64,000 nucleotides of DNA. Source: Alphaproteobacteria bacterium. GTDB taxonomy: Bacteria > Pseudomonadota > Alphaproteobacteria > Caedimonadales > UBA9215. The notes below the pieces were generated by a model. That model saw nothing but the letters and a program-made list of their open reading frames with translations, had not been told where the DNA came from and did not search any database. A program made the translations under genes and the position numbers. Shown in pieces: positions 323 through 58,436 of this stretch. The stretch covers positions 5,614 to 69,613 of the forward strand of contig JAJSAD010000044.1 of the NCBI GenBank assembly GCA_024281375.1. Reading direction: 5' to 3'. Position 1 is the first letter of the stretch, and each line of letters starts with the position of its first letter.

Positions 323-1786
323 GTGTCTTTTTTTTTGAAATATTTGCTTTTATTAGAGAAACTCTGTCATGATTCTTCTTGTGGCACGGATTTGTGTACA
401 AAAACAGGGAGGTATGTGTTCGTGTTAGAGCAAAACCAGTCAGATGAAACACCGGAAAGTGTTAATGAGCTGCAGAAAAAAGCACTTTACGGGCGTCTTT
501 ATGTGGCCTTAAAAGCCTTGCTAAGAAAACATCAACAGAAAGAAGCTCAATACCATTGGGATAGGCACGCGCGCGCAAAACAACGGGTTCCTAAGGGTCA
601 GTGGCGGACTTGGTTAATCTTAGCAGGGCGCGGTTTTGGAAAAACACTAACAGGTGCTGAAACATTGCGCAAATGGGTGCACACAGGGAAGGCGCGCCGT
701 ATCGCTCTGATTGGAGCAACGGAAAGCGAAGTCCGAGATGTCATGGTCGAGGGGGATAGTGGTTTGCTAGCGGTCCATCCCCCCGATTTGCGACCTCAGT
801 ACGAACCGTCTAAACGGCGTATAACGTGGACAAATGGGGCTGTTGCAACGATTTTTAGTGCGGAGAACTATGAGCAATTGCGGGGGCCTCAATTCGATAC
901 GGCTTGGGTGGATGAACTCTGCAAATTTCGATCCGATCGAGAAGTGTGGGATCAGTTGAATTTTGCGTTAAGGCTTGGAAAATACCCCCGAGTGATTATC
1001 ACGACGACACCAAGGCCTACACCTCTTTTAAAAGAACTTCTTCAGGGAGAAAAGGCAGGAGAAGTCCATGTGACAACGGGAACAACCTATGAAAATTTGA
1101 AAAATCTTTCCCGCCATTTCATCCACTTTATGAGTCAGAAATACGGTGGAACAACCCTGGGTAAACAAGAGCTCGAAGGACGTATTTTAAAAGACGTTCA
1201 CGGGGCTTTGTGGACCAATGAGCTTATTGCCTCAAGCGTTATGCGACGAGAAAATATGCCGGAATTCACGCGTATTGTTGTGGCGGTTGATCCCGCTGTG
1301 ACGTGTCATGGAAAAAGCGATGAAACAGGCATTATTGTTGCGGCAAAAGATGCGGAAAATCGGGGCTATATCCTTCATGATTACAGTGGCAAATATACCC
1401 CCCATGGCTGGGCGAAAAAAGCCATTGAGGCTTTTCATCGCTTTAAGGCTGATTGTGTTGTGGCCGAAGTCAATCAAGGCGGCGATATGGTTGAAAGCAT
1501 CGTGAGAAGTGTTGAGCCTTCGACACCTTTTAAGGCGGTTCATGCGAGTCGCGGCAAGGCTTTACGGGCTGAACCTGTTCTGGCTCTTTATGAACAGGGG
1601 CGTGTGTTTCATGTCAAAGGAGGGCACCTCACAAAGCTCGAAAGCCAAATGGTGGAATATGTACCCGGTCTTTCAAAAAAGTCCCCTGATCGTTTGGATG
1701 CCCTTGTGTGGGCGTTAACGGAATTGCTCCTACCAAAGGACCTTAGTGTGACGCCAAAACTTCATGGTATCTTTGAAAAAAATTAA
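323..1786 (+). CDS. phage/GTA-type terminase large subunit (orphan)
   Basis: 487-aa ORF with a Walker-A-like LILAGRGFGKTLTGAE and overall layout of alphaproteobacterial GTA/phage large terminases (WVDELCKF, VAVDPAV...ETGIIV nuclease half). The true start is uncertain. An in-frame GTG at 422 follows a GGGAGG. Confidence 0.8.
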   Translation: MSFFLKYLLLLEKLCHDSSCGTDLCTKTGRYVFVLEQNQSDETPESVNELQKKALYGRLYVALKALLRKHQQKEAQYHWDRHARAKQRVPKGQWRTWLILAGRGFGKTLTGAETLRKWVHTGKARRIALIGATESEVRDVMVEGDSGLLAVHPPDLRPQYEPSKRRITWTNGAVATIFSAENYEQLRGPQFDTAWVDELCKFRSDREVWDQLNFALRLGKYPRVIITTTPRPTPLLKELLQGEKAGEVHVTTGTTYENLKNLSRHFIHFMSQKYGGTTLGKQELEGRILKDVHGALWTNELIASSVMRRENMPEFTRIVVAVDPAVTCHGKSDETGIIVAAKDAENRGYILHDYSGKYTPHGWAKKAIEAFHRFKADCVVAEVNQGGDMVESIVRSVEPSTPFKAVHASRGKALRAEPVLALYEQGRVFHVKGGHLTKLESQMVEYVPGLSKKSPDRLDALVWALTELLLPKDLSVTPKLHGIFEKN

Positions 1787-1827
1787 CTTTAGAAATTCCA
1801 TTAATATCTTGGAAAAATAACTTACAG

Positions 1828-2691
1828 GTGGCATCATTTTTAGGTAGCTTTATTTTAGGAAATCCTCTCATGGTGAGTGCCTCTACAACACCCATTGATC
1901 AATTTCAGGTCACTCTGAGTGATGTTGAAGAATTAAAAACGGATAACTGTTCATTGCGGAAACCTCAAGCCGTTATTGTACATTATACAGCAGGCGGTGA
2001 TAAAAGTTCCCAAGATTGGCTCACAACAGGACCTGTTAGTGCAAACTACCTCGTTAAGGGAGATGCAACAATTGCTCAAATAGTTCCCGATGGAAAGAGA
2101 GCTTGGCATTCTGGTCGTGCGTCTTGGCGAGGTTTCCCGGATTTAAATTCTGTATCTTTAGGGGTTGAAATCACAGGATATGGTTATAAAGGGCCCCATG
2201 TACCAGAGGACGTTGACCTTAGTCAATGTGTTGTGATTCCAGGATCGGATCATAGCTGGTTTCCTTTTCCCGAAGAGCAATTTCAATCCGTTTCCAAATT
2301 GTTGTTGGATTTTAGAGATCGTTGGAAAATTAAGCCCCCGCTTTTTGTTGGTCATAGTGATGTGGCTCCGGGTCGTAAGGTTGATCCCGGTCCGTTATTC
2401 CCTTGGGAGCGGCTCCATAAAGAATTTGGTATTGGGGCCTGGCCTGACCTTGAAAAAGACCTTCAACATATTGAGATGCCTTCTGCTGAGAAAGAGCTTA
2501 AATGGACTCAACTGCGCTTGCGGGATTATGGTTATGATTGCCCTTTAACGGGGGTTTTAGAGGGGGGAACAACCTCTGCGATTCAAGCTTTTCAAATGCA
2601 CTTTAGGCCTAAATTAATTGATGGAAAATCTGATGCCGAGACGCGCTTAATTCTAGCGCATCTCGTTGATCAATATCATTATGAGGATTAG
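1828..2691 (+). CDS. N-acetylmuramoyl-L-alanine amidase (Amidase_2, AmpD/AmiD-like) with C-terminal peptidoglycan-binding domain
   Basis: Motifs IVHYTAG, AWHSG, GVEI and GHSDVAPGRKVDPGPLFPW. The C-terminal LRLRDYGYDCPLTGVLEGGTTSAIQAFQMHF resembles PG_binding_1. The start is uncertain (GTG 1828 or ATG 1870). Confidence 0.85.
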   Translation: MASFLGSFILGNPLMVSASTTPIDQFQVTLSDVEELKTDNCSLRKPQAVIVHYTAGGDKSSQDWLTTGPVSANYLVKGDATIAQIVPDGKRAWHSGRASWRGFPDLNSVSLGVEITGYGYKGPHVPEDVDLSQCVVIPGSDHSWFPFPEEQFQSVSKLLLDFRDRWKIKPPLFVGHSDVAPGRKVDPGPLFPWERLHKEFGIGAWPDLEKDLQHIEMPSAEKELKWTQLRLRDYGYDCPLTGVLEGGTTSAIQAFQMHFRPKLIDGKSDAETRLILAHLVDQYHYED

Positions 2692-11094: not shown

Positions 11095-11117
11095 AAAAAC
11101 GGTAAAGATTTGAAAAA

Positions 11118-11750: not shown

Positions 11751-11759
11751 ATATATAAA

Positions 11760-12944: not shown

Positions 12945-13531
12945 AACGCAATACGCTTTTAGCCCAAGAGGCTCCCTTTGTTTTTTCTGCTGAAAACCTC
13001 AAGAAACTCAAAGCTGTTCAGGCCAAATATCCCAAAGAACGACAAGCCAGTGCTGTGATGCCGGCCCTTGAGTTGGCTCAACGTCAAAATGGGGGGTGGA
13101 TTCCAAGAGAAGCCATTGAAACAATTGCAACGCTGCTTGCTATGCCCGCTATAAAAGTGTGGGAAGTGGCCAGTTTTTACACTATGTATAACCTGCAACC
13201 CATTGGGAAACATTTAATTCAAGTCTGTCGTACCACCAGTTGTTGGTTGCGCGGGGCCGATGATGTTTTGAAAGCCTGTAAAAAACACAGCGGGGCTGAT
13301 GTAGACAAAATTTCTGAGGATGGGTGTTTTTCTTTAATGGAAGTTGAATGTTTGGGAGCTTGTGTGAATGCGCCTATGGTTCAAATTAATGATGATTATT
13401 ACGAAGATTTAGACCCTGAGAAAGTGGAAAAAATTATAGAGGATTTGCGGGCCGGCAAGGATATCAAAGCGGGACCTCAGATCGATCGATTGAATTCTGC
13501 CCCCGTTGGTGGCTCTAAGACAGTGACATAA
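12941..13531 (+). CDS. nuoE: NADH-quinone oxidoreductase subunit E
   Basis: 24-kDa subunit with 2Fe-2S cysteines ([22 protein letters not shown]). The start overlaps the nuoD stop (ATGA). Confidence 0.9.
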
Positions 13532-13548
13532 ATAGGTGAACAAGATAA

Positions 13549-14814: not shown

Positions 14815-14842
14815 AAAATTAAAAAGAATATAGGTATCTTAA

Positions 14843-16933: not shown

Positions 16934-16934
16934 T

Positions 16935-17948
16935 ATGATTCCAACCATTTGGATAGAAAATCTGCAATATGGGGCCGTGACCTTAGGTTATGTGTTGCTC
17001 ATTGTGCTGCCTCTTATTCTGTCCGTGGCCTATCTGACCTATGCAGAACGTAAAGTCATTGGCTACATGCAACTGCGTAAAGGTCCCAATACCGTTGGTC
17101 CTTTTGGGCTCCTGCAACCCATTGCTGATGCGGTTAAGTTGATGCATAAGGAAATTATTATCCCTAGCCGTGCCAACCCGATTCTCTTTTTGATGGCACC
17201 GGTTATTACCTTTACGCTCTCGCTCATTGCGTGGTCTGTGATTCCCTTTGGGGAAGGGGTGGTGCTCTCGAATATAAACGTGGGCATCTTGTTTTTGTTT
17301 GCGGTTTCTTCCTTGGAAGTTTATGGCGTCATCATTGCGGGGTGGTCCAGTAACTCAAAATACCCCTTCTTGGGCGCTATGCGTTCAGCGGCGCAAATGG
17401 TTTCTTACGAAGTTTCCATGGGCTTTATTATTGTAAGCGTTCTCCTGTGCGTTGGATCTTTAAATATCACGGACATTGTCATGGCTCAAAAAGGGTTCTG
17501 GTTCGCTATTCCGTTATTTCCCTTAATGATTATGTTCTTTATTTCGACCCTTGCGGAAACAAATCGGGCGCCCTTTGATTTGCCCGAAGCCGAGGCTGAA
17601 CTTGTATCAGGCTATAATGTTGAATATTCGTCCATGCCTTTTGCGCTCTTTTTCCTGGGCGAATACGCCAACATGATCTTGATGAGTGCCATGACAACCA
17701 TTCTCTTTCTGGGCGGTTGGTTGCCTCCCTTTGAAATAGCGCCTTTCACTTGGGTTCCGGGATTTGTGTGGTTTGCTTTAAAAATAGCCATGGTGCTCTT
17801 TTGCTTTTTATGGGTCAGAGCGTCGTTGCCGCGTTATCGTTATGATCAATTAATGCGCTTGGGCTGGAAAGTTTTCCTGCCCTTTTCGTTGGGATGGCTC
17901 GTTTTAACGGCAAGCTTTCTTTTTTACACAGATAATTTACCGACTTAA
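16935..17948 (+). CDS. nuoH: NADH-quinone oxidoreductase subunit H
   Basis: ND1 family ([42 protein letters not shown]). The start is moved to ATG 16935, directly after the nuoG stop. The track start 16854 overlaps nuoG by 80 nt. Confidence 0.9.
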
Positions 17949-17986
17949 AGGTCAAATGCAAGACCTGGCTAAAAGGATATAGACAG

Positions 17987-18478
17987 ATGACACGTTTTTT
18001 CTACCGCCTTAAATCATTTGCCTTGCTGGATATCATTGCGGGCATGAGCCTCACCCTGAAGTATTTTTTTAAACCAAAAGTCACCTTAAATTACCCCCAT
18101 GAAAAGGGGCCTTTGAGCCCGCGTTTTCGGGCCGAACATGCATTGCGGCGTTATCCAAATGGCGAGGAACGTTGCATTTCTTGCAAGCTTTGTGAGGCTG
18201 TTTGCCCCGCACAAGCCATTACCATTGAGGCTGCTCCCCGAAAAGAAGACGGGAGTCGTCGCACGGTGCGTTACGATATTGATATGACAAAATGCATCTA
18301 TTGTGGCCTTTGCCAGGAATCCTGTCCTGTAGACTCTATCGTTGAGGGTCCCAATTATGAGTTCTCAACCTTCACAAGAGAAGAGCTCTTTTATACAAAA
18401 GACAAACTTCTCGACAATGGCGATCGCTGGGAAGAACTCCTTGCCGAAAATATCAAACGCGAAGAGCGCTATCATTAA
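17987..18478 (+). CDS. nuoI: NADH-quinone oxidoreductase subunit I
   Basis: Two ferredoxin motifs, [12 protein letters not shown] and [12 protein letters not shown]. Confidence 0.95.
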
Positions 18479-18638: not shown

Positions 18639-18995
18639 TTGAGCGATACAAAGGAGAAAGAACAGGTAGGTCCCCGAAAAAACATGACTGACACCCCAGC
18701 AGGAAACAGGAAAAAGATTGCTATAGGTGAGAATGACGTCGCTCTCATCTTTAAAGAAGACGGTCATGTGGACTTATCCTTTCCGGAGATTTCGGATGAA
18801 CATGTTCCAGAGCATGTGATGGCAGCCTTGGCTCTTTCATATGCGGTGGTGGACGAAGAGTTTTTTGCGATTATACAGGATCGCTTTGCTCAGCAAGCTG
18901 CTATGACATTGGAAGAGGAAGCTCGGGAAAGAAATGCAGCAATAAAGAAAGAGGATGGATCGGTTACAACCCCTCATTTGAAAGTTGTTTCATAA
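18639..18995 (+). CDS. hypothetical acidic protein (orphan), bracketed by inverted repeat-element copies
   Basis: 118-aa ORF from TTG 18639. ATG 18684 (MTDTPAGNRKK...) is the more likely start. No recognisable domain. Confidence 0.4.
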   Translation: MSDTKEKEQVGPRKNMTDTPAGNRKKIAIGENDVALIFKEDGHVDLSFPEISDEHVPEHVMAALALSYAVVDEEFFAIIQDRFAQQAAMTLEEEARERNAAIKKEDGSVTTPHLKVVS

Positions 18996-19259: not shown

Positions 19260-20606
19260 ATGTTAAAACTTTTTTTACAGGCTTCCTTATCAACATTGTG
19301 GGACAGATTGTCTTTGCAAGGTAAATGGCAGCAAGTGGCATCGGCTATTGAGGCGGATGCCCTTATCTGTAAAGACTCCTTAGATGAAGAAACCTTTCTC
19401 CAAAATCCCCTGATGCCTCAAATCATTATAGGGAAAAAAGACTCTGTTTTATCTGAATTCTCGTGTGAGATGTCTACTCTAAATGATATTCCCGTTATTT
19501 TAGAATCTCTTGAGGAGATTATAAGTAAGAGTCAGACCCTCCATAATAAAAAAATTCCCTATAAGAATGATCTTTTCCATACAGTTCTTGCTTTTATTTG
19601 GACAAGAGGGGGATATGTAAAAGCTCATCTTTCTCATACTTTAACATATGGTTATGGCTATCCTTTTATTGAGAAAATTTGTAAAATCATAACGCCGCCG
19701 CCTTGGAAACATCAAAACCAGCAGGCGTCTCCTATCGTCGGTCTTTTGAACCACCTAGAGAAATTGAAGCTTCTTTCATCCCATATCGTGGAAAGGGCAC
19801 ATTCCTGTCCATCTTGCGCAAGTTTGAATATTATCTTGAGAGATGGCTGTTCCCAGTGTCATTCTCCTCATATTAATAAACATAGTATTGTGCATCACTT
19901 CAAGTGTGCCTACCAAGCAGCTCAACATCACTTTATTCGTAATACAGACAAGATCGTTGAGTTTATCTGCCCACACTGTCATGAAGAACTGATTCATTTT
20001 GGTGTTGATTATGATAAACCCGGTGAGGTTTTCTTATGTGAAAACTGTCATTACGAAAGTTCTGATACCGTTGTGGTTGGCAGGTGCTTGAATTGCCAGT
20101 TTAGCTTTCGCTCAAATGAGACAGCTCAATGTGTGATCAAAGATTATATTTTGACGGCCCTTGGTCATCGGGCTGTGTTGAGTTTAAGTTCAGATATTTT
20201 TTCACAGATTGAAGAGCTCGCCGATGAAAAAGACCTCATTTCTTATGCTGAATTCTTGCGACATACAAAGCACTTGTCATCTTATAAAGAACGTTATGGT
20301 CTGGAAGGTTTAATCCTTTCTATACAGATTTCTCAGACCCAAGATGAGGGGCAAACATTAGAAGACGAAACTCTGCTTCGTACCATTGGAAAGACTATTT
20401 TAAGGGATACGCGCGAGGGAGATTTGATCAGTGTGCATGACGGTCATATTTTTATTTTGATGATGGGGGCTCAAGAAGACACTAAAGAACAGGCCATTGA
20501 ACATATTCAACAGCTCATTCATGAAACCTTTAATGAAGATATTTCCGATCACATCATCATTGAGGAATATATGTTAGAGAATGTTCTAAAAGATCAGGAG
20601 CATTAA
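19260..20606 (+). CDS. multi-CxxC zinc-ribbon protein with C-terminal degenerate GGDEF-like domain (I-site retained); candidate c-di-GMP receptor
   Basis: Five CxxC pairs between residues 183 and 279 (CPSC, CSQC, CPHC, CENC, CLNC). The C-terminal ~140 aa align by eye to GGDEF domains (DYILTALGHRAVL ~ D.LTGL.NRR.F). The motif TREGDLISVHDGHIFILM corresponds to RxxD-N5-GGDEF, with RxxD intact and GGDEF replaced by DGHIF. Confidence 0.6.
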   Translation: MLKLFLQASLSTLWDRLSLQGKWQQVASAIEADALICKDSLDEETFLQNPLMPQIIIGKKDSVLSEFSCEMSTLNDIPVILESLEEIISKSQTLHNKKIPYKNDLFHTVLAFIWTRGGYVKAHLSHTLTYGYGYPFIEKICKIITPPPWKHQNQQASPIVGLLNHLEKLKLLSSHIVERAHSCPSCASLNIILRDGCSQCHSPHINKHSIVHHFKCAYQAAQHHFIRNTDKIVEFICPHCHEELIHFGVDYDKPGEVFLCENCHYESSDTVVVGRCLNCQFSFRSNETAQCVIKDYILTALGHRAVLSLSSDIFSQIEELADEKDLISYAEFLRHTKHLSSYKERYGLEGLILSIQISQTQDEGQTLEDETLLRTIGKTILRDTREGDLISVHDGHIFILMMGAQEDTKEQAIEHIQQLIHETFNEDISDHIIIEEYMLENVLKDQEH

Positions 20607-21898
20607 TGGAAACGGCTTATGATTTTTTTACAAACCAAACCACTGACTCCTTTATTAGAAATTACTGGATTGTGGTTTTTGTGGAGATCCCTCGTTTTTT
20701 TATGGGGGGGCTTCTGGTTATTTTCAGTATTCTCTTTTTTAAAAGCAAAGGTCAGACACCTGAAAGGTTAAACCGGATGGGAGCACAGATATTGAAAAAA
20801 GGCGTTAGTATTATTATTGCCATGCATAACGAAGAAGAAGCCATATGCCGAGCCCTTTCTTCTTTAAATGAACTTTGTACAGAGAATAAAACAATTATCG
20901 TCGTTAATGATGGGTCGACAGATGACTCACACAACGTTTGCTTAAGCCTCAAGAAAAAAGGGTTGATCCAACATTATATTTATAATGAATCCAGAGGCGG
21001 GAAGGCTGCTGCCGTTAATTTAGGCATTAGATATGTGAAAACCGATTTTTTTGTTGTGATGGATGCGGATACTTCCTTTGATCGAGATGCCTTAAATATT
21101 GCAGCCGCTTATTTTGAAGATTCCCACGTAGGGGCCGTCGGGGGAAATTTGGCTGTTCGTAATTATAACGATAATTTAATCACACGAACACAACAAATAA
21201 ATTACCTTCTGTCTATTACGCTTGGAAGAATTGTTCGTGATATGCTTGGGTTTTACTTTGTGGCTTCTGGTGCTTTTAGTATGTATAGAACCACAGCTAT
21301 TCATCAGCTCGGCGGCTGGGGATTTGGTCCCGGTGAAGATGCTGATATTGCCATACGCCTGCGCATTGCAGGGTGGACTGTGAGATTTGCTTTTTTTGCT
21401 ACAGGACAAACGGCTGTTCCTGACAGCGCACCAGGACTCATCAAGCAGAGAATGAGGTGGGATCGATCCCTCATTCGATTAAGATATCGCAAATATCTAG
21501 GGCATGTTTTAAATCCTTTTCGAGCTTCGTTTAAACTTCCTCTGGCCCTCAGTTTTTTCGATATTTATTTCTTTACAGCTCTCCATCCTTTTTTATTCGT
21601 TGGGTTTGTCACGGAAAAAGTTGTCTTGTATGGGCCATCAGCACTCCTATTTATCATCACAACTATGTTTTTATTTTTGATTATAGATACCTTTAAAATC
21701 TTAATGGTTTTTGCGTTATTACGTTCTCAATATCATCAATACTCTTTATTGTTGTACGTTCCTTATTATACATTTTATAATATTTATTTTTTACGTTTCG
21801 TAAGACTATTTGCCGTTTGCCATGAACTTATTTTTAGGGGATCTTACAAGGATGATTATGTGCCTAAAAAAGTTAGAGATAAAATAAAAAGATATTAA
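20606..21898 (+). CDS. processive family-2 glycosyltransferase (PgaC/IcaA/NodC/BcsA-class membrane synthase)
   Basis: VNDGSTDDS, GGKAAAVNLG, the DxD motif VVMDADT, GPGEDADI and the QxxRW motif KQRMRWDRS. One N-terminal and several C-terminal TM segments. The start overlaps the upstream stop (TAATG). Confidence 0.85.
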   Translation: METAYDFFTNQTTDSFIRNYWIVVFVEIPRFFMGGLLVIFSILFFKSKGQTPERLNRMGAQILKKGVSIIIAMHNEEEAICRALSSLNELCTENKTIIVVNDGSTDDSHNVCLSLKKKGLIQHYIYNESRGGKAAAVNLGIRYVKTDFFVVMDADTSFDRDALNIAAAYFEDSHVGAVGGNLAVRNYNDNLITRTQQINYLLSITLGRIVRDMLGFYFVASGAFSMYRTTAIHQLGGWGFGPGEDADIAIRLRIAGWTVRFAFFATGQTAVPDSAPGLIKQRMRWDRSLIRLRYRKYLGHVLNPFRASFKLPLALSFFDIYFFTALHPFLFVGFVTEKVVLYGPSALLFIITTMFLFLIIDTFKILMVFALLRSQYHQYSLLLYVPYYTFYNIYFLRFVRLFAVCHELIFRGSYKDDYVPKKVRDKIKRY

Positions 21899-23062
21899 AT
21901 GAAACAGATAAATAATCAAAAAACAGCCTATAGAATTAAACGTGATAAACGGTCGTTCTCACTAAAATTTGGGCGTTACCTCTATCTCTTTGTTATTGCT
22001 CTTCTTTTTCTGTGGATTTTTCACCTAACCTTTTCCTTTTTATATTTATTAGATGGAGACGGTTTTTTGACGGCAGATAGTGAAATTGTTGCTTTTGAGT
22101 ATGACACTTCTCTGGAAACGATCCTTGTTGAGAATGGAGATGACGTTAAACAGGGGCAAGAACTTTTCAGGTATGATTCGTCTGACTATCGATTGCAGTT
22201 GGTTGATCTTCTTTTTAGACAAGTTAATCTGCTACAAGATTTTTCTGAAACGGGCGTGCATTTAAAGAAAATTGATGCCCAAATAGCCAGTACGAAAAAA
22301 TACTTAGGTGTTGCGAAAGGTATTGTGGATAAAATAAAAAAACTTGAAAAAAGGGAGTTGATATCCAATAGGCGTCGAAGCATAGAATACATGCGCTATT
22401 TTGATGCTCTCAAAGAATTTGAGGATTATACGGCGGAAAAGGGCGGTCTTTCTGCCCAGCACCATCAAATTAAGCAGAAATTACAGATGGTTGCAAAAAA
22501 TGTTACACACTTAGTGGATTCTTTTCATGAGGGGGTGGCCCGAGCCCCCATGGATGGTGTCGTTGGTGACTTAGAATTAGAACCAGGCTCTGTTGTTGAA
22601 AAATCTGAGCCTGTTTTGCGGATATTTTCAAATCTCCGTTACCTTCTTGTTTATTTTAAAAGTTCGTCTGTTTCAACAAAATTGGAGGATATTGTGATTG
22701 TTCATATTCCAGGAAAAGGATTTCATTTTGGAACGGTTGTGGACAGGGATCGTGTTGCCTCTTCAATTCCTGAAGAAATAAAACCAAAATTTCGCCCCGC
22801 AGAACGTCGCCGTGCCATGATCGTGATGATGGACCAAAAGGTTTTACGAGCGTCCCCCCTTATGAAGTCAATTCATGTCTACAAACCCATGGGCTTAGAA
22901 TCCCTTGTTGCTTTGTTTGATATTAAACGGGAGCACCACAAGGAATACAAAGCTTTCTTAAAAGAGCGCAAAAAACGTTTCGAAGATGTTCGCTCTAAAC
23001 ACTCACAATCAATGGCCGCCCTACATGATAAAGCCCGTGCTATAAAAACTTTTTCCGATTAA
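21899..23062 (+). CDS. HlyD-family periplasmic adaptor (membrane fusion protein)
   Basis: N-terminal TM helix YLYLFVIALLFLWIFHLTFSFLYLL. Split barrel-sandwich halves (VENGDDVKQGQELFRYD and RAPMDGVVGDLELEPGSVVEKSEPVLRI) flank a long coiled-coil region. The ATG directly abuts the upstream TAA. Confidence 0.8.
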   Translation: MKQINNQKTAYRIKRDKRSFSLKFGRYLYLFVIALLFLWIFHLTFSFLYLLDGDGFLTADSEIVAFEYDTSLETILVENGDDVKQGQELFRYDSSDYRLQLVDLLFRQVNLLQDFSETGVHLKKIDAQIASTKKYLGVAKGIVDKIKKLEKRELISNRRRSIEYMRYFDALKEFEDYTAEKGGLSAQHHQIKQKLQMVAKNVTHLVDSFHEGVARAPMDGVVGDLELEPGSVVEKSEPVLRIFSNLRYLLVYFKSSSVSTKLEDIVIVHIPGKGFHFGTVVDRDRVASSIPEEIKPKFRPAERRRAMIVMMDQKVLRASPLMKSIHVYKPMGLESLVALFDIKREHHKEYKAFLKERKKRFEDVRSKHSQSMAALHDKARAIKTFSD

Positions 23063-23063
23063 A

Positions 23064-23095
23064 GAATAAAAAAGAGGAGAGGGGGCTCCCTCTCC
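23064..23095 (-). terminator. rho-independent terminator (for the minus-strand gene 23138-23713; possibly bidirectional)
   Basis: Perfect 8-bp stem GGAGAGGG/CCCTCTCC (23076-23083/23088-23095) with a 4-nt loop. The A-run on the plus side is a T-run on the minus strand. Confidence 0.6.
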
Positions 23096-23137: not shown

Positions 23138-23713
23138 TTAAGAACCGGCTTCGACTAATTCTAGAGCAGACTCTAATTTTCCGTAATTTTCTTCATTTTG
23201 CATTCTGTCATTAAAGAAGGCTCCCGTTGATTTCGTGTAAAAAACGGGTAATATTTTTGTCAACTCCGACCCTATATTGACTCCAGAGCTTATTTTCTTT
23301 TTTAAGTCTCTGAAATTCATAGGAGCACTTGTAGAACCGTTATTCTGTATCGTAGCAACAATTACTGATTTTGCTGAGCTATGAGAGACAAAGTCTTGAA
23401 TAAGACCTTCAAGGTATGTATCTTCACCAGGATGTAATCTATCTCCCCCTCTTCTTATTTTCAAGATTAAAAATAACTTTTGATTAGAAGCCTTGGCGGC
23501 CGCATCTCCAATATCGTAGGGCCCGTCCATAGTAATCTTACCCTCTTTATTAACGAATTTTGCGAAGCCTTCTTTAAAGGTCTTTACCGCATTATTTTTT
23601 TGGTCATCAAAAAAAATATTTCCAGTATTATCTACAAGCAAAGTTACATCGGGGGCAGCTGACACCGGCACTGACATAGAAAACAGAAAACCAATCAAAA
23701 CGAATAAACGCAT
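23138..23713 (-). CDS. secreted hypothetical protein
   Basis: 191-aa ORF with the signal peptide MRLFVLIGFLFSMSVPVSA. No recognisable domain. Confidence 0.5.
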   Translation of the reverse strand: MRLFVLIGFLFSMSVPVSAAPDVTLLVDNTGNIFFDDQKNNAVKTFKEGFAKFVNKEGKITMDGPYDIGDAAAKASNQKLFLILKIRRGGDRLHPGEDTYLEGLIQDFVSHSSAKSVIVATIQNNGSTSAPMNFRDLKKKISSGVNIGSELTKILPVFYTKSTGAFFNDRMQNEENYGKLESALELVEAGS

Positions 23714-24038: not shown

Positions 24039-24115
24039 GTGCCCGTAGCTCAGTTGGATAGAGCACAGGATTCCTAATCCTGGGGTCGGAAGTTCGAATC
24101 TTCTCGGGCACACCA
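24039..24115 (+). tRNA. tRNA-Arg (anticodon CCT)
   Basis: GTGCCCG/CGGGCAC acceptor stem, D-arm AGCTCAGTTGGATAGAGC, anticodon loop TTCCTAA, T-arm GGAAGTTCGAATCTTCT and an encoded CCA. Confidence 0.9.
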
Positions 24116-24292: not shown

Positions 24293-24367
24293 GGGTGTTT
24301 AGCTCAGCGGGAGAGCATCTCGTTTACACCGAGACGGTCGGGGGTTCAAATCCCTCAACACCCACCA
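24293..24367 (+). tRNA. tRNA-Val (anticodon TAC)
   Basis: GGGTGTT/AACACCC acceptor stem, anticodon loop TTTACAC, T-arm GGGGGTTCAAATCCCTC and an encoded CCA. Confidence 0.9.
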
Positions 24368-40787: not shown

Positions 40788-42356
40788 ATGATCATTCAGT
40801 CTGAAACGACTGCACCCTTTACGCCTGCTTTTAGCTCCTTGCGTAAACTCTTTTGGCCCATTCATCGTCGCGAGCTTAAAAAATTCCTCCCTATGACCCT
40901 TATTATGTTTTGCGCGCTTTTCAATTACACGCTCTTGCGTAATATGAAGGATGCGCTCGTCATTACAGCCTCGGGGCCTGAGGTCCTCCCCTTCTTAAAA
41001 GCCTTTGTGATCTTGCCTTTTTCTCTACTCATTGTGGCCGGCTATGCGAAGTTATGTAATGTTTTTGACCGACAAAAAGTCTTCTATATTGTGATTTCAG
41101 TCTTTGTTGGCGTTTATATTTCCTATGCGTTGTTCATTCACCCCAATATTGAATACCTCCACATGGACCCCAAACGCCTTAAAGAGCTCCAGGAAACGTA
41201 CCCTAATTTTCAGCATTTCTTCTCGGTTATTGCCAATTGGAGCAGCAGCCTTTTTTACCTGTTTGCAGAGCTTTGGGGAGCAACGACCATCAGCCTCATG
41301 TTCTGGCAACTGGCCAACGAAATCACCCGGGTCCAAGAAGCCCGGCGTTTTTATACCATGTTCGGATTACTGGGGCACTTTGCGCTAATAGCAGCCGGAA
41401 AACTCGGGAAATCCCTTTGTGATATTCGCCATACCTCCGCGAGTGCTGATGAAGGATGGACCTATTTTATCAACTATAATATCGTGGCTATTGTGATTTC
41501 TGCTGGACTTATTATGCTCATTTATTGGTGGATGAATCACCGCGTTTTAACGGACCCGAAGTACTATGATGAATGCAATAAGATCGCGTCCAACAAAGCC
41601 ATCAAAACAAAGCTTTCCCTCGCGGAAACAATAAAATATGTTAGTCAATCTAAATACTTAGGCTATATTCTTCTTATGGTTATTGGCTATGGCCTTGCTA
41701 TGAATTTGTCAGGTATCTTGTGGAAAAAGCAGGTGCAAATTCTCTATCCCAATCCCCTTGATTATGCCAATTTTCTAGCAGAATTCGCCGTATGGGTTGG
41801 GTTCATTACCATCACCCTCATTTTTTGTCTCAAAGGAATGGTCGAGCGTTTTGGCTGGTATCGAGCCGCCATGGTCACGCCCCTTATTGTCGCGGCAACT
41901 GTCATTCCTTCCTTTATCTTTATGTTCTTTCAAGAGGACATCACTCCTCTTTGTTCCTGGACAGGTTGCACGGCGCTGACCCTTGCCGTTACCATTGGGG
42001 GAGCCCAACAAATCCTGAGCAAAAGTGGCAAATATTCCATGTTCGACCCCACAAAAGAGATGGCCTACATCCCCCTTGATCAAGAGCTCAAAATAAAAGG
42101 AAAAGCTGCTGTTGATGTTTCTGGGTATAGTCTTGCCAAAGCCAGCGGAGGCTATATCGCAGGCGCCCTCCTGGTTATCACAGCCGCAAGCGACTTGATG
42201 GTCATTGCGCCTTACTTAGCAGCCATTGTTATTGCTATTGTTATTGTGTGGATTATCGCCGTTAAGAAACTGAGTTTTCTATACCGTAGCCTTGTTAACA
42301 AAGCCAAACCCCGGGATGTACAGACCTTTACCAATCCAGAGAAAGTTATTAGATAG
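40788..42356 (+). CDS. tlc: ATP/ADP (nucleotide) translocase, Tlc/NTT family
   Basis: 522 aa and 12-TM-like. The N-terminus LRKLFWPIHRRELKKFLPMTLIMFCALFNYTLLRNMKDALVIT is typical of Rickettsia/Chlamydia NTTs. Confidence 0.9.
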   Translation: MIIQSETTAPFTPAFSSLRKLFWPIHRRELKKFLPMTLIMFCALFNYTLLRNMKDALVITASGPEVLPFLKAFVILPFSLLIVAGYAKLCNVFDRQKVFYIVISVFVGVYISYALFIHPNIEYLHMDPKRLKELQETYPNFQHFFSVIANWSSSLFYLFAELWGATTISLMFWQLANEITRVQEARRFYTMFGLLGHFALIAAGKLGKSLCDIRHTSASADEGWTYFINYNIVAIVISAGLIMLIYWWMNHRVLTDPKYYDECNKIASNKAIKTKLSLAETIKYVSQSKYLGYILLMVIGYGLAMNLSGILWKKQVQILYPNPLDYANFLAEFAVWVGFITITLIFCLKGMVERFGWYRAAMVTPLIVAATVIPSFIFMFFQEDITPLCSWTGCTALTLAVTIGGAQQILSKSGKYSMFDPTKEMAYIPLDQELKIKGKAAVDVSGYSLAKASGGYIAGALLVITAASDLMVIAPYLAAIVIAIVIVWIIAVKKLSFLYRSLVNKAKPRDVQTFTNPEKVIR

Positions 42357-45815: not shown

Positions 45816-46433
45816 ATGATTAAAATATTTACCTTATTATCCATAATAACTTTAACGACCTTCACTAGTTTTTCAGCACAGGCCTCTGCCTCAGCGTCAG
45901 CCCAAGAAGAAGCCTCTGATAGATCTTATGTTCGCCAAGCGCCCTCTATTCAATTTTCTGACCTGAAACCGGCTCATTTAGAATTTAAAGAATCTACCAT
46001 TCATCTTGGGGATCAAACATGGTGCTTGCATTGGGTGGGACAACAATATCAACCCATTACAGCCACTTACCCAGAAGGTCAATATGACATTAGTGTTAGT
46101 CTTGTTGAGGATATCGGCCTTCATTCAGCAACTTCAGGTCCTAAATTTGCGACCTATTCTATTAAAGCCATACCAAAAGATGGGTCTGTTATTAAAAATA
46201 CCTTTTTACACTTTCACTTAATGCTTCCAATGGAATGTTCTGGTCATAGTGCAGCAAAAATGTACGATAACAAAGAATTTGAAGGGTACGATGCAGATTA
46301 TGATACACCTGCTTCTGACTCAGAATCGGAATCTGACTCTAGCTCTGACGATGAAGCCGCCCAAGGTGGATATGTGGATTTCGCGGATTTAAAAAATCGT
46401 CTAAGGGATCATCGCTCTTACCCTCTTGGATGA
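45816..46433 (+). CDS. secreted hypothetical protein, paralog B, with acidic Ser/Asp tail
   Basis: Signal MIKIFTLLSIITLTTFTSFSAQA. Motifs DQTWCLHW and PMECSGHSAAKMYDNKEF, with the tail SDSESESDSSSDDE. A TTGACA-N17-TAGGAT promoter candidate lies at 45778-45806. Confidence 0.6.
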   Translation: MIKIFTLLSIITLTTFTSFSAQASASASAQEEASDRSYVRQAPSIQFSDLKPAHLEFKESTIHLGDQTWCLHWVGQQYQPITATYPEGQYDISVSLVEDIGLHSATSGPKFATYSIKAIPKDGSVIKNTFLHFHLMLPMECSGHSAAKMYDNKEFEGYDADYDTPASDSESESDSSSDDEAAQGGYVDFADLKNRLRDHRSYPLG

Positions 46434-47389
46434 GTTTTTGCATAGACCTTAGCCAAATGGCTAGGGTCTATTTTTGTATAACGCTGAGTTGTGGAGAGTG
46501 AGCTATGCCCTAAGAGTTCTTGAATAGAACGCAAATCCGCCCCTCCTTGCAACAGATGAGTTGCAAAGGAATGACGCAGCGCATGAGGCGTTGCTGTTTC
46601 CGGTAATCCCATACTCAAGCGCAGCCGCTGCAATTGACGTTGAGCAACGGCCGGATTTAAGGGCCCTCCCCGTTTTCCTATAAAAAGGGGAGCACTGGGG
46701 GTGTGTTGCTGGGGATGCAACTGAATATAATCCTCAACTCTCTCTTTTACCTGAGGTAATAAGGGGACAAGACGCTCTTTTTTACCTTTTCCTTTAATGG
46801 TAAGAAAACGCCCCCCCTCTTTCATGCCATTAATATCCAGGGAAAGAGCCTCAGAAATCCGCAATCCACACCCATATAGCAAGGCAAACAAGGCTTGATC
46901 TCGGGCCTCTACCCAAGGTTCCTGTTCCTCCAAAGAGTTTTCAGACGTCAGAGCAATGGCCTCATCTTGATTTAAGGGCCGGGGAAGGCTATCCAAGAAT
47001 TTTGCAGCTTTTAGAATAAGAATAGCTTGGTTTTCAATATTATGATGTTTTTTAAGGTATTTAAAAAAGGTCTTTAAAGATGAAACCGCTCGGGCGTTCG
47101 ATCGATGACTCCCCCCCTCCCCTAAACGATTAGCTAGAAAGCTGCGAAAATCTCGTAGATCAAGTCTCGATAGGTCATTTAGTTTGAGAGCCGTCCCTCG
47201 ATGGTCTCTTTGAAAAACACAAAAACTCTTTAAATCATGGAGGTAATTTTTCACTGTATGGTCTGAAACTCGGCGTTCGAAGACCATATTCTTAATCCAC
47301 AAGGAAATAGCTTCCCTTAAATCAGGAGCCACAAAATCATAAAAAGGAGCAAGAAGTATGTCAATGTTCATAGAAACATTATTCCACAA
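46418..47389 (-). CDS. tyrosine site-specific recombinase, XerC/XerD family
   Basis: ARDQALFALLYGCGLRISE, HALRHSFATHLLQGGADLRSIQELLGHSSLSTTQRYTKI (R-H-R-Y catalytic set). Confidence 0.85.
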   Translation of the reverse strand: MWNNVSMNIDILLAPFYDFVAPDLREAISLWIKNMVFERRVSDHTVKNYLHDLKSFCVFQRDHRGTALKLNDLSRLDLRDFRSFLANRLGEGGSHRSNARAVSSLKTFFKYLKKHHNIENQAILILKAAKFLDSLPRPLNQDEAIALTSENSLEEQEPWVEARDQALFALLYGCGLRISEALSLDINGMKEGGRFLTIKGKGKKERLVPLLPQVKERVEDYIQLHPQQHTPSAPLFIGKRGGPLNPAVAQRQLQRLRLSMGLPETATPHALRHSFATHLLQGGADLRSIQELLGHSSLSTTQRYTKIDPSHLAKVYAKTHPRG

Positions 47390-50687: not shown

Positions 50688-52019
50688 TTACGCAGCAGAA
50701 TTTTTCTTAGCAGCCTCTGCTTCTTCAACGATTTCAGAAAGTCTGCGATTTAATTCAATAAAGGCCTCATTAATGTCTTCTGACGTTTTAGAAATTTTTC
50801 CAGAGATTTCTTTTGTTTCCCGCGCTTTTTCATTAATCTGTTCAGCCCTTGATTTACTTTGTTCGGACTCTGCAGAAACACCTTCAATGTGATTCGCAAT
50901 GTCAGACGTTGCCGCATTTTGCTCTTCAACGGCTCCCGAAATAATCGTCGCGATTTCATTCATCTCGTTTACCGTACTATCAACAGACTTAAAAAGTTCA
51001 GCAGTTTCATTAATGTTTCCCTGAATCACTGTCACTTGACTCGTAATTTCTTCTGTTGCTTTTTCCGTTTGGTTCGCAAGATTTTTCACTTCTGAGGCCA
51101 CAACGGCAAAGCCCTTACCGGCCTCCCCTGCCCTCGCAGCTTCAATGGTTGCATTCAAAGCCAACAAGTTAGTTTGAGAGGCAATTTTGTTAATCATTTG
51201 AATGACATCGCCAATGGTTGTGGCACAGGTAACCAAATCATCAATCTTGCCCTGAGCCATTTGAGTCTTATTAACGGCTTCTCCTGTAATACCAGAGGAC
51301 CTGGCAACCTGATCACTGATTTCTTTAATGGCTTCTCCAAGCTCTTGTGAGGTCTCCACAACAGATTTGATCTTTTCTTGGCTCCGCTCAACAGCCTCAA
51401 GGTTTTCTCGGGATAAAGTTTCAATAGATCCGGATATTTTTTGAGACATATCTCCAAGGTCACTTGAGGCCCCTTGAATATTTTCTTTAGCAAAAGTAAA
51501 GGCATCGGTTATTTTAGAACTAATATCATTCAATTGGCGCTGCATGCCTTCTTCTTGACTAGAATCCATATAGGTACTCAATGCCAAATCCATATCAAGG
51601 AGGGCAGCTTTTATGGTTGCTTCAAGGGCAAGTTCTAAGTCTTTTGGATTTTTATTAAGGGCGCCCACAAGAACCTTTGCGATATTACTTAACGCAATGG
51701 CATAGCCTCCGATATACCACTGAGGTTTCAAGTCAACTTGACCATGAACCTTTCCTATTTTTATGATATTTTCAAGGTACGCTTCATTAAACTCTCCAGA
51801 AAAAAGATTAAGCCAATGTCTTCTTTGAGCCGCCTTAGGCTCAACAGTACCATTGGGGAATTTTTCGACCAAATGCTCGTAGGTCGCCACATGAGCATAA
51901 AATCCTTCTAAAATAGGGTCGATATTTTGCTCAAGAGCAGAGGCATTTTTCTTGAGAGTTTCACATAATTTTTCGTCTAGTTGAATAAAATCTAAACGTT
52001 TTTTTAGATCAATTGACAT
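50688..52019 (-). CDS. globin-coupled methyl-accepting chemotaxis protein (HemAT-like)
   Basis: The N-terminal sensor-globin-like region ([33 protein letters not shown]) contains a candidate proximal His. The C-terminal MCP signalling hairpin is [36 protein letters not shown]. Confidence 0.75.
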
Positions 52020-56057: not shown

Positions 56058-58436
56058 TTAAGCCCTGATTGAAATAACTTTATTTTTCGAAATAATCTGA
56101 TTTTGCAAGTTTTCGAATATGTTTTTATGGGCCATTTCCTTCGAAATTAAGAGAAGAGTTTCCACCAAAGGAAGAGGCCTGCTGAAATAATAACCTTGGA
56201 TAAGATAACATCCCATTTCATAAAGCATATCCAGTTGCTCTTTATGTTCAATACCTTCGGCAATAACATCGATGTTTTGAGATTTTGACAAAGCAATAAT
56301 GGCCTTGATCAATTCAAGGTTTTTTGAGTCAACGGTCATTTTATCAACAAATATTTTATCAATTTTCAAATAGTCAAAATCAAACTTATTAAGATAGGAA
56401 AGACTTGAGTATCCTGTCCCAAAATCATCAATCAACACTTCTACGCCCATATTTTTTAACTTCATAAATTTGTTATAGGTTTCCTTTGTGGAATCCAATA
56501 ACAAGCTTTCTGTCACCTCTACCTTTAGGGAACTTGTTGGATTTGGTGAATTTTGAATAAGTTTCAGAATAGAGTTAAAATGCTTATCATTATGAAATTG
56601 CTTAACGGACATATTGATAGAAAAAATAGCTCCTGGATAATCAGGAAGCGTTTTTCGCAAATTTTCCATATCTCGCGAACACAACTCAAAACATTTTTTC
56701 CCTAAGTCCAAAATAAGGCCCGATGACTCTGCTAGCTTAATAAAAATCGCCGGGGGGATAGAGCCTAATTCCGGATGGTGCCACCGACACAAAGCTTCAA
56801 AATAAGCAATACGACCAGATTTAATATCAACAATAGGCTGATAATACATTTCAATATCATCTGTTTTGATCGCTTCCTCTAAATCTTTTAACATTTTTAT
56901 TTCAGAATTTATTTTCTCAACAAATTGGGAATCAAAAACACAAATACGTCCTTTACCTAATTTTTTGGCTTTATACATCGCCTTATCAGCTTTGTATAAA
57001 ATATTATCCTCTTGTTCATGGCTACTATCCAACATCAGTAAACCAATGCTTACAGAGTTCTTTACCTCCGTATTTTCAAGGTAAAAAGTCCGACAGCAAT
57101 TCTCTAAGATACGTTCAGCAATTTCATAAGCCTCTCCTTCATCCTCAACGGAATCCAGTAAAACAACAAATTCATCCCCCCCGAATCGTGATACCGTATC
57201 GCTTTGGCGCACACAAGCCGAAATGGACTTTGCGATTATTTTTAAGGTTTCATCACCCAAAGCATGTCCATGTTTATCATTAATATCTTTAAAATCATCC
57301 ACATCCAAGAAAATAACCGACGATTTATCAGAATCAATCCGTGATAAATTTTTCAGATTATGATGAAGGCGATCAACAAATAAATCTCTATTGGCAAGCC
57401 CCGTCAAAGAATCATAAAAAGCGGCATGATGAAGGGACTTAATAAATTTTTCTTGAGTCGTGAATAAATGAAGGCGTTCTAAAACAATAGACAACTGGGA
57501 TGAAAATATTTCTATAGCTTTACGAGATAATAAATGATCTTCAGTCCCTTTAAAGGAAAAAAATTCAATAACAGCAACGAGTTCATTCGAGATTTTTATA
57601 GGTATAAAGAGGCATGTTTTCACGACCTTAAAGAAAGAAGTCAATTTTTTAGATTTCTTTGAAAAATTTTCTTTCCTCAGAAAAAGACATTTACTTTTTT
57701 TACTTTTTAAGTCTTGAATTTTTGGAGAAAAGTCGCCTTCTAAATCCCTCCTATAGGTATAAATAGTATCATTTTCCTCTCCATCACTGTTAACATAGAG
57801 GTCATCCAATTTTTTTAAAAATGCGTCACTCTGTATATTATGGAAATAAGCTGCGTCCATGCCTATATAACGCAATGTTAAAAGCAACATATCAACAATA
57901 GCTTCTTTGAAATCATTATTACGGCTTGAGGCTCTAGACATATGATAAAAATAAGTGGAATGCTTCTCACGTTCATCAATATAAGAAGAAAGAGAAATGC
58001 TAATATCTATTAAAGTGCGATTTGTTATATGATTTAGGATTTTTTCTACACGTTGCGGATCTGTAGAGTGGTCTTCGAAAACTTTATTTTGCAGGTAGGT
58101 AATAATTTTTTTATAACCCAAAATATAAAGCTCTGAAGAAATATTATGCTCATCATGTTTTTGACCAATTTGTATTGATTTTTCTCGAACGACATTGATA
58201 TCAGCACTTAAGAGCAACTCTATCCAATGCTGACTTTGTTTTTGAATAAGGACCTTACGTTTAGCGGCAGAAAAATGAAATATTTTTTGTGTTTCTAAAA
58301 AATCATAAAGCTCGATCAAAGCCCCTTTGATATGTTTTTTTAAAAAATGTTCTAAAATAACATATTCATCTTTATTGCTCTCAAAATAACAAGAGTCAAT
58401 AAAATCATAGAAGCGACTCCGAGTACCGTTATTCAT
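56058..58436 (-). CDS. GGDEF-EAL protein with N-terminal sensor-globin-like and GAF-like regions
   Basis: Intact RQSD-N5-GGDEF (VRQSDTVSRFGGDEFVVLL) and intact EAL signatures (YFEALCRW, DDFGTGYSSLSYL, KIDKIFV, IAEGIE, QGYYFSRP). The N-terminus (QSQHWIELL, IQIGQKHDEHNISSELYILGY) parallels the globin region of the MCP at 50688-52019. Confidence 0.8.
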   Translation of the reverse strand: MNNGTRSRFYDFIDSCYFESNKDEYVILEHFLKKHIKGALIELYDFLETQKIFHFSAAKRKVLIQKQSQHWIELLLSADINVVREKSIQIGQKHDEHNISSELYILGYKKIITYLQNKVFEDHSTDPQRVEKILNHITNRTLIDISISLSSYIDEREKHSTYFYHMSRASSRNNDFKEAIVDMLLLTLRYIGMDAAYFHNIQSDAFLKKLDDLYVNSDGEENDTIYTYRRDLEGDFSPKIQDLKSKKSKCLFLRKENFSKKSKKLTSFFKVVKTCLFIPIKISNELVAVIEFFSFKGTEDHLLSRKAIEIFSSQLSIVLERLHLFTTQEKFIKSLHHAAFYDSLTGLANRDLFVDRLHHNLKNLSRIDSDKSSVIFLDVDDFKDINDKHGHALGDETLKIIAKSISACVRQSDTVSRFGGDEFVVLLDSVEDEGEAYEIAERILENCCRTFYLENTEVKNSVSIGLLMLDSSHEQEDNILYKADKAMYKAKKLGKGRICVFDSQFVEKINSEIKMLKDLEEAIKTDDIEMYYQPIVDIKSGRIAYFEALCRWHHPELGSIPPAIFIKLAESSGLILDLGKKCFELCSRDMENLRKTLPDYPGAIFSINMSVKQFHNDKHFNSILKLIQNSPNPTSSLKVEVTESLLLDSTKETYNKFMKLKNMGVEVLIDDFGTGYSSLSYLNKFDFDYLKIDKIFVDKMTVDSKNLELIKAIIALSKSQNIDVIAEGIEHKEQLDMLYEMGCYLIQGYYFSRPLPLVETLLLISKEMAHKNIFENLQNQIISKNKVISIRA

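Follow-up and report, generated by a model that had tools for sequence, protein, structure and literature searches.

A 64,000-nucleotide stretch from an alphaproteobacterium of the UBA9215 lineage (assembly GCA_024281375.1, contig JAJSAD010000044.1, positions 5,614 to 69,613; the window, hereafter) contains a gene (19260..20606, + strand) for a cytoplasmic protein of 448 aa, which we will designate the regulator. It combines an N-terminal alpha/beta domain, the cysteine-rich module TackOD1 and a degenerate GGDEF domain (dGGDEF), and is encoded in an operon with a family 2 glycosyltransferase (GT2) synthase and a periplasmic adaptor of the membrane fusion protein (MFP) type. The dGGDEF has lost the active site (A-site) of diguanylate cyclases and selectively conserves the residues of their inhibitory site (I-site), where the cyclases bind cyclic di-GMP (c-di-GMP). 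From this, we propose that the regulator is a c-di-GMP receptor that would switch on the GT2/MFP exopolysaccharide machine post-translationally, a chain of steps that we consider, taken as a whole, to be evenly poised between right and wrong, and whose individual links differ in strength. An initial annotation of the window had interpreted the protein as a non-catalytic c-di-GMP sensor coupled to the downstream synthase, and our comparisons support this interpretation.

Architecture of the regulator and conservation of its I-site

The open reading frame (ORF) and its 448-aa translation exist as described in that annotation. No hydrophobic segments were found in the protein and, hence, no transmembrane segment. 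A full-length AlphaFold2 model, built on a 138-sequence alignment of the family, reached a mean predicted local distance difference test score (pLDDT) of 90.4 and a predicted template modelling score of 0.78. As deduced from HHalign comparisons and from the secondary structure of the model, residues 1-100 (19260..19559) form an alpha/beta domain, whose counterpart by homology is the middle region of the longer relatives that are fused to a receiver domain (REC) (HHalign probability 98.5%). We also considered these 100 residues as a degenerate receiver domain, and rejected this possibility given their HHalign probability to REC of 2%. The nearest relative of the regulator, from Alphaproteobacteria bacterium UBA1908, shows 39% identity.

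Residues 102-296 (19563..20147) match the Pfam family TackOD1 (PF18551) with E=1e-35 and 123.5 bits, for a cut-off of 32, and cover positions 6-186 of the 188 in the profile, in line with the comparison drawn in the initial annotation. TackOD1 was defined by five CxxC and one HxxC motif, and its function was called obscure, in an archaeal context (Galperin et al. 2018, PMC5847659); in the literature that we searched, the domain is mentioned nowhere else. The five CxxC pairs noted in the initial annotation are indeed present in the regulator (CPSC, 183-186; CSQC, 197-200; CPHC, 237-240; CENC, 260-263; CLNC, 276-279), and they are accompanied by an invariant motif, H212-H213-F-x-C216, which had been overlooked and whose H213 and C216 make up the HxxC. 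Conversely, Cys291 had been counted with the cluster and lies outside the conserved set, Arg being the commonest residue at this position in the relatives. The ten cysteines of the pairs, on whose conservation the annotation had made its reading depend, are ca. 97–100% conserved among 157 representatives of the family, and the complete Cys/His cluster (19806..20096) is near-invariant both in these and in the 138 sequences. This conservation, together with the E value of the TackOD1 match, indicates that the cysteine pattern did not arise by chance. The 11 conserved cysteines plus the histidine would suffice for three tetrahedral zinc sites, rather than two, and we presume that they are the ligands of about three zinc ions. 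When modelled alone, TackOD1 (pLDDT 93.1) consists of three helices followed by the beta-rich Cys/His part. Foldseek did not retrieve any significant relative of this module among solved structures (best E=0.07, probability 0.38, template modelling (TM) score ≤0.23), with faint echoes of small zinc beta-domains and of winged helices. Hypothetical proteins encoded on megaplasmids of haloarchaea (NC_013746.1, NC_019976.1, NZ_CP085338.1 and NZ_CP044524.1) match the TackOD1 core as well, so that the domain is not confined to the TACK archaea of its original description.

The C-terminal region (residues ca. 300-446; 20157..20597) has a GGDEF fold, as had been proposed from an alignment by eye. Nearly all of the 50 listed PDB hits retrieved by Foldseek with the full-length model are GGDEF domains, with probabilities of ca. 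1.0 and target-normalised TM scores of 0.5–0.69, and they include PelD (4eu0, 4etz) and LapD. Likewise, the 138-sequence family profile matches the solved cyclases DgcR (6zxm, domain i-E 2.8e-11), WspR (3i5a, 8.6e-12), GcbC (5euh, 7e-11) and DosC (4zve, 2.4e-10). Among 96 relatives scanned, the Pfam families GGDEF and GGDEF_2 were matched in 16 (best 1.4e-7) and six, respectively, and PelD_GGDEF in one, weakly; one Rheinheimera orthologue exceeds the gathering threshold of Pfam GGDEF.

The tetrapeptide REGD (R385 and D388; 20412..20423) is separated by exactly five residues, LISVH, from the pentapeptide DGHIF (20439..20453), so that REGD-LISVH-DGHIF occupies residues 385-398 with the spacing seen in receptors of the PelD, PssE and PopA type. 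The positions calculated in the initial annotation for the Cys pairs (from 19806) and for REGD to DGHIF (20412-20453) are arithmetically correct, and the canonical register that it assumed was recovered independently in the profile alignments, which place REGD on the I-site and DGHIF on the GG(D/E)EF of solved cyclases. Specifically, the 'RetD' of the family falls on 'RKSD', the I-site of DgcR, with five residues separating it from GGEEF, and the alignment with 3ezu (RRSD) agrees. The predicted topology is also canonical, because the model situates RxxD between a helix (366-383) and a strand (389-393), and DGHIF on the next hairpin. The loss of the A-site holds as well: DGHIF, which relatives do not conserve, has His and Ile where positions 3 and 4 should be acidic, and the DxD metal-binding region of active cyclases, variable across the family, is degenerate in the regulator, where Ser and Gln replace the upstream Asp residues. 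The protein does not have, therefore, the combination of GG(D/E)EF and metal-binding acidic residues that characterizes active cyclases.

Within the clade of the regulator (22 sequences), for whose delimitation only the TackOD1 region entered the tree, R345 (20292..20294), R385 and D388 are 100% conserved, for a median of 32% over the domain, whereas the former A-site positions are variable. Across the family, R345 is present in 78 of 85 RxxD-type members (92%), 88% of which also carry Arg or Lys at position 415, and in the 63 members without RxxD the residues at 345 and 415 are Glu, Asp or Ala, with R345 never being the major residue. The regulator carries three of these four signature residues (R345, R385, D388 and R/K415). 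We take the complete signature to be the expected appearance of a c-di-GMP I-site with secondary arginines, as in PleD, WspR and PelD; the equivalence to PleD R390 and WspR R198 is presumed from spacing, and not from a structural superposition. R345 is a putative secondary I-site arginine. Together, these results indicate that the regulator is almost certainly derived from a GGDEF protein and catalytically dead, and its conserved residues suggest that it probably binds c-di-GMP through the I-site.

A conserved operon with a GT2 synthase and an MFP adaptor

The stop codon of the regulator gene overlaps the start codon of the following gene (TAATG), which encodes a processive membrane GT2 synthase of 430 aa (20606..21898, + strand), and a gene for an HlyD/MFP-like adaptor (21899..23062, + strand) begins one base past the stop of the latter. 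The GT2, with at least three transmembrane segments, matches Pfam Glycos_transf_2 at E=1e-31 and contains the complete signature of processive membrane synthases (D, DxD, ED, QxxRW) as DGSTD, DAD, GED and QRMRW, which is invariant in 11 orthologues. It resembles PgaC/IcaA, NodC and chitin synthases. Among curated families it is most like PgaC/IcaA (E=5e-43), falling far short of the corresponding equivalog TIGR03937 (147.6 bits for a cut-off of 422.3), and the relatives that it has in the PDB, chitin and hyaluronan synthases, are distant. The adaptor, predicted to be periplasmic with a single N-terminal transmembrane anchor, shows weak HlyD and biotin-lipoyl matches. In scans with Pfam and NCBIfam we did not find a PilZ domain in either the GT2 or the MFP, which sets the latter apart from PilZ-MFP proteins of the Alg44 type; a separate receptor would thus be needed if c-di-GMP controls this system. 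The three-gene operon is closed by a GC-rich hairpin, GGAGAGGGGGCTCCCTCTCC (23076..23095), that resembles a terminator on both strands. We also considered an RNA element in the intergenic region upstream of the regulator, and discarded it because there was no match to Rfam or to tRNA/tmRNA models. Blastn comparison of the cassette with plasmids did not yield any match.

The linkage between regulator and synthase is highly conserved. We examined 84 loci from Alpha-, Gamma- and Zetaproteobacteria, Bacteroidota, Caldisericota, KSB1, Clostridia and Desulfobacterota, and an orthologous GT2 gene was adjacent and on the same strand in 81 of them (E from 1e-40 to 1e-169); in the other three, the contig ends first. 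This arrangement recurs in full-length homologues and in REC-fused relatives, within unrelated flanking DNA. The MFP gene usually accompanies the pair, and is located downstream in the alphaproteobacterial and Plesiomonas type, and upstream in Rheinheimera maricola (locus L018, 2549-8281) and Prolixibacter bellariivorans (L038, 2056-8485). In these last two species, the order is a large gene for an outer-membrane-like protein (with a weak OEP match in Prolixibacter), the HlyD-like MFP, the TackOD1-dGGDEF protein and the GT2, which implies that these operons would encode a complete trans-envelope export system. Yet another order is found in Caenispirillum salinarum (L009/L010, 3753-8144), where the TackOD1 gene stands between the GT2, upstream, and the MFP, downstream; its GT2 ORF is longer and bears the NCBI name 'bi-functional transferase/deacetylase' (P0349), hinting at a deacetylated N-acetylhexosamine (HexNAc) polymer. 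The coupling to the downstream synthase anticipated by the initial annotation is thus supported by both the TAATG overlap and the adjacency of the GT2 in 81 of the 84 loci, and the regulator is very probably coupled in function to the GT2 and MFP.

Two apparent input types, a proposed mechanism and its alternatives

An exhaustive HMMER search over 1.84 billion cluster representatives (clusters at 50% identity) retrieved 2,257 relatives of the regulator, 709 of them at E≤1e-30, most of which span TackOD1 plus the C-terminal domain; the family is present in at least 593 species-representative genomes. A distance tree shows essentially one deep split, separating a clade of short proteins with RxxD, which includes the regulator, from a clade of mostly REC-fused proteins without it. 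Among family representatives, RxxD is found in 84 of 106 short forms and in one of 42 long forms, and 35 of the long forms contain a Pfam receiver domain. The split is coherent, because the same TackOD1-dGGDEF core stands beside the same GT2, equipped either with an I-site or with a receiver. The sister clade lost RxxD and gained an N-terminal receiver domain and, therefore, its input seems to be phosphorylation in place of c-di-GMP. The dGGDEF of the REC clade keeps a residue set of its own, Y357, R373, G393 and D397-[F/Y]398 in the numbering of the regulator (e.g. P0004, P0008 and P0013), and the situation of D397-[F/Y]398 on the 'EF' of GGDEF suggests a different function or ligand in this clade.

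Some REC-clade loci (L004, 4459-5574 and 12168-13373; L003, 12207-17845) are found amid genes for PilZ-HisKA, REC-EAL, Hpt, single REC and hybrid kinase proteins, which suggests phosphorelay control, sometimes still linked to c-di-GMP. Family members also occur on plasmids and chromids, such as plasmid p1 of Plesiomonas shigelloides (L086, 5491-9191) and pKAM345_3 of Aeromonas caviae (L085, 5656-7038), and at two places in NZ_CP119424.1 of Photobacterium sp. DA100. They are annotated as 'diguanylate cyclase', probably a misnomer. The HHFxC motif reads LHCFTC in Plesiomonas and Aeromonas, with Cys in place of the second His, and the Plesiomonas cassette lies near genes for the utilisation of N-acetylmannosamine.

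We propose the following mechanism. The genes at 19260-23062 would encode a synthase-dependent exopolysaccharide machine, in which the PgaC-like GT2 would act as a processive synthase/translocase in the inner membrane, the MFP adaptor would probably lead the polymer across the periplasm, and an outer-membrane partner would conduct it outward; the operons of some relatives also encode a dedicated outer-membrane protein. Judging from the resemblance to PgaC, NodC and chitin synthases, the polymer is possibly a beta-linked HexNAc. The regulator would be a non-catalytic descendant of a diguanylate cyclase that kept the I-site residues R385-x-x-D388 and R345. Binding of c-di-GMP to the I-site of dGGDEF, with the signal coming, for example, from a globin-GGDEF-EAL enzyme encoded in the same window, would change the conformation or the oligomeric state of the regulator, and the invariant, zinc-stabilised TackOD1 would pass the change on to the GT2 at its cytoplasmic face, activating polymerisation post-translationally. 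In the sister REC clade, phosphorylation would be the input instead of c-di-GMP. Direct contact of the regulator with the GT2 or the MFP and the binding of zinc are both assumed in this scheme. Provided that dGGDEF is dead, that the regulator is coupled to the GT2 and that it binds c-di-GMP, post-translational rather than transcriptional action would be the likely mode. The generalization of this mechanism, by which TackOD1-dGGDEF proteins would be a widespread class of regulators serving one orthologous PgaC-like GT2/MFP machine, with a three-zinc TackOD1 as universal coupler and an input swapped between c-di-GMP and phosphorylation, is put forward tentatively, as a little less probable than its opposite.

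Several observations weigh against this proposal. When used alone, the sequence of the regulator remains below the threshold of Pfam GGDEF_2 (E=0.014), and its residue 415 is His, a position occupied by Arg or Lys in 88% of RxxD-type relatives. Since TackOD1 lacks a solved structural relative, its role as the coupling element is a conjecture. The complementarity between RxxD and REC, which would seem strong statistical evidence (Fisher p=3e-19), had to be downgraded, because essentially one deep split in the tree reduces it to about one evolutionary event, instead of many correlations. Finally, the strict adjacency to the GT2 gene would also fit a dedicated transcription factor.

Indeed, the regulator might be a signal-responsive transcription factor whose TackOD1 binds DNA and controls its own GT2-MFP operon, with c-di-GMP or, in the REC clade, phosphorylation as the signal. 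Zinc ribbons commonly bind nucleic acids, proteins with REC plus an output domain are often such factors, and an archaeal REC-TackOD1 architecture with an intervening winged helix-turn-helix (wHTH) is listed by Galperin et al. (PMC5847659). The helical part of TackOD1 gave faint Foldseek hits of wHTH type (ORC1 winged helix, probability 0.47; LmrR/MepR, 0.12), although all the structural hits of TackOD1 are non-significant (best E=0.07, TM≤0.23), and a DNA-binding Pfam family was not matched by the regulator or the 96 relatives. Translational coupling and co-direction with a synthase gene are also seen in the post-translational activators PelD, PssE, BcsE and Alg44, and the literature treats MxdA, the comparable protein of Shewanella discussed below, as an effector of the Mxd machinery. 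We thus consider transcriptional control unlikely. A similarly low probability is given to a purely structural role of dGGDEF, in dimerisation or as a scaffold, by which the regulator would be a constitutive subunit of the synthase and RxxD and R345 would serve for folding, for an interface or for another ligand. The whole sister clade works without RxxD and the regulator has no Arg at position 415, both of which would fit a scaffold. On the other hand, the three or four residues that map to the I-site are the most conserved of an otherwise fast-evolving domain, coincide exactly with this site in the alignment with solved cyclases, and vanish jointly from the clade in which a REC input was acquired.

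The Cys/His cluster could instead hold an iron-sulphur centre or a redox-active metal, in which case the regulator would primarily sense redox state or metals for the synthase, either alone or besides sensing c-di-GMP. This is compatible with the 11 invariant Cys and the invariant His, and with the oxygen-sensing globin-coupled proteins encoded in the genome neighbourhood. However, paired CxxC knuckles on beta-hairpins are typical of structural zinc ribbons; there are weak Pfam matches to DZR and other zinc-ribbon families, and none to any iron-sulphur family; and Galperin et al. liken TackOD1 to a double zinc ribbon and to the zinc sites of PriA (PMC5847659). A sensor of this kind is therefore improbable, somewhat more so than the two previous options. 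Last, NCBI labels many homologues as 'diguanylate cyclase' or 'diguanylate cyclase domain-containing protein', and Pfam GGDEF does match some members, but with DGHIF in place of GG(D/E)EF, Ser and Gln at the upstream metal-binding Asp positions and both regions unconserved across the clade, the chances that the regulator is an active cyclase are negligible. The c-di-GMP receptor acting on its synthase is, in all, the reading that we retain.

Related systems, genomic setting and significance

The principle of degenerate-GGDEF receptors that switch on polysaccharide synthases through their I-site is established for PelD, PssE and BcsE and, probably, MxdA. In PelD from Pseudomonas aeruginosa, PssE from Listeria monocytogenes and PopA from Caulobacter, as in the regulator, a dead GGDEF domain keeps the RxxD. 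Binding of c-di-GMP at the I-site is the input in all three, and PelD and PssE, encoded within the biosynthetic operons, activate polysaccharide synthesis post-translationally. The partner domains are different, consisting of transmembrane plus GAF domains in PelD, a transmembrane domain in PssE and REC-REC in PopA, none of them known to include TackOD1; moreover, the Pel synthase is a GT4, unlike the GT2-MFP pair of the window. BcsE is a cytoplasmic accessory protein whose GIL domain binds c-di-GMP through a degenerate, GGDEF-derived I-site, RxGD, and boosts the GT2 synthase of enterobacterial cellulose. The REGD of the regulator fits this motif, but the architecture of BcsE is different and is not known to include TackOD1, and the regulator gave only a marginal match to the BcsE family TIGR03369 (13.4 bits for a cut-off of 244.65, E=0.032).

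A processive GT2 combined with an MFP-type adaptor is also found in Alg8/Alg44, for alginate, and in BgsA/BgsB, for mixed-linkage beta-glucan. These and related synthases are activated by c-di-GMP through different devices: a PilZ domain carried by the MFP in Alg44, a domain at the C-terminus of the GT2 in BgsA, and the interface between PgaC and PgaD for poly-N-acetylglucosamine, whereas in the window there is no such domain on the GT2 or MFP and a separate TackOD1-dGGDEF protein is encoded. For mixed-linkage beta-glucan, a 2026 report indicates that TolC is needed for biosynthesis (PMC13438883). With respect to the archaeal response regulators with TackOD1, the match to the Pfam profile is likewise full-length and includes the five CxxC and the HxxC, and the REC fusion is shared with the bacterial sister clade; the TackOD1 of TACK archaea was described from type IV pilus loci, whereas here it is bacterial, fused to dGGDEF and linked to a GT2 synthase.

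The closest described system would be mxdABCD from Shewanella oneidensis, judging from gene order and published descriptions. MxdA is a degenerate-GGDEF protein reported to bind c-di-GMP (PMC7666153, PMC11395469) and is required for the three-dimensional biofilm (PMC7666153, PMC3691769, PMC3409153). Next in the operon come the membrane GT2 MxdB and the efflux-pump-like MxdC (PMC3691769, PMC3409153), so that the Mxd system, compared by description only, shares with the operon in the window both the gene order and the list of parts, namely a degenerate GGDEF, a GT2 and an MFP/efflux-like protein. In addition, MxdA interacts with the receiver protein CheY3, an interaction reminiscent of the sister clade of the regulator family, whose members are mostly fused to REC. 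The systems differ in the fourth gene, mxdD, which has no counterpart after the MFP gene of the window because the terminator-like hairpin follows there. A Cys-rich or TackOD1 module in MxdA is not mentioned in the Mxd literature that we searched.

Sequence searches did not bear on this likeness. No Shewanella was found among the best 120 matches of a profile built from Alteromonadales-type members of the family against a database of 5.8 billion proteins, and neither Shewanella nor Xanthomonas among the best 120 matches of a second profile, built from the GT2 orthologues whose loci share the gene order, both results being uninformative on homology with Mxd. Likewise, a scan of metagenome contigs by exact match with two mxd promoter primers (PMC3691769) produced 0 matches and is, being insensitive, uninformative. 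Tblastn comparisons with plasmids and chromids retrieved the members from Plesiomonas, Photobacterium and Aeromonas, with no Shewanella among the matches listed. The xagABCD genes from Xanthomonas are a possible relative on literature grounds only.

Around 35 kb away from the cassette, the window encodes a Protoglobin-GGDEF-EAL protein of 792 aa (56058..58436, − strand) with canonical RQSD-x5-GGDEF, DxD-FK and EAL/DDFGTGYSS motifs, a c-di-GMP cyclase/phosphodiesterase coupled to a globin that may sense oxygen. Because this GGDEF-EAL enzyme is intact, the organism can make and degrade c-di-GMP, and we infer that the protein is a candidate to supply the signal or to drain it. A second globin-coupled sensor, Protoglobin-MCP (50688..52019, − strand), is a HemAT-like transducer for aerotaxis of the methyl-accepting chemotaxis protein (MCP) type. 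The window also contains a TLC-type ATP/ADP translocase (40788..42356, + strand; PF03219, E=5e-161), of a kind that is a hallmark of bacteria with an obligate intracellular life. This translocase, the AT-rich sequence and a split nuo operon jointly suggest a Rickettsiales- or Holosporales-like alphaproteobacterium, probably obligate intracellular, which nevertheless keeps genes for flagella, chemotaxis and c-di-GMP.

The nuo run (from a 20-kDa subunit to nuoG, nuoH and nuoI; 10465-18478) ends after nuoI, with no nuoJ-N next to it, and the DNA that follows, up to 25840, contains a 118-aa ORF, the polysaccharide cassette, two tRNA genes and fliI. The 118-aa ORF (18639..18995, + strand), which flanks the cassette, does not match any Pfam or NCBIfam family, and neither does a 191-aa ORF (23138..23713, − strand) that is convergent on the operon and shares the hairpin at 23076-23095. 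The latter has an N-terminus resembling a signal peptide and, as pure speculation, might be a secreted partner comparable to MxdD. The tRNA genes are Arg-cct (24039..24115) and Val-tac (24293..24367). At the start of the window, a phage-type large terminase, with T4-like N and C domains, is followed by an N-acetylmuramoyl-L-alanine amidase (323..2691, + strand); these and a tyrosine integrase (46418..47389, − strand) may be remnants of prophages or gene-transfer agents.

The fusion of TackOD1 to dGGDEF, its exclusive linkage to a GT2/MFP pair, its breadth and the dichotomy between I-site and REC appear to be undescribed in the literature that we searched. TackOD1, functionally 'obscure' since 2018, is here tied to a specific job, the regulation of a conserved GT2/MFP exopolysaccharide exporter across many phyla, and the database label 'diguanylate cyclase' is corrected for proteins that cannot be cyclases. 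The two natural versions of the regulator, with c-di-GMP or phosphorylation as the presumed input, would constitute a comparative system for the relay of signals to a membrane synthase and, if MxdA is a member of the family, the genetics of Shewanella would apply to thousands of unannotated operons. If the proposed mechanism is true, it would provide the first functional context for TackOD1, including its role as an output domain of archaeal response regulators, and a probable obligate intracellular alphaproteobacterium would retain a c-di-GMP-gated polysaccharide.

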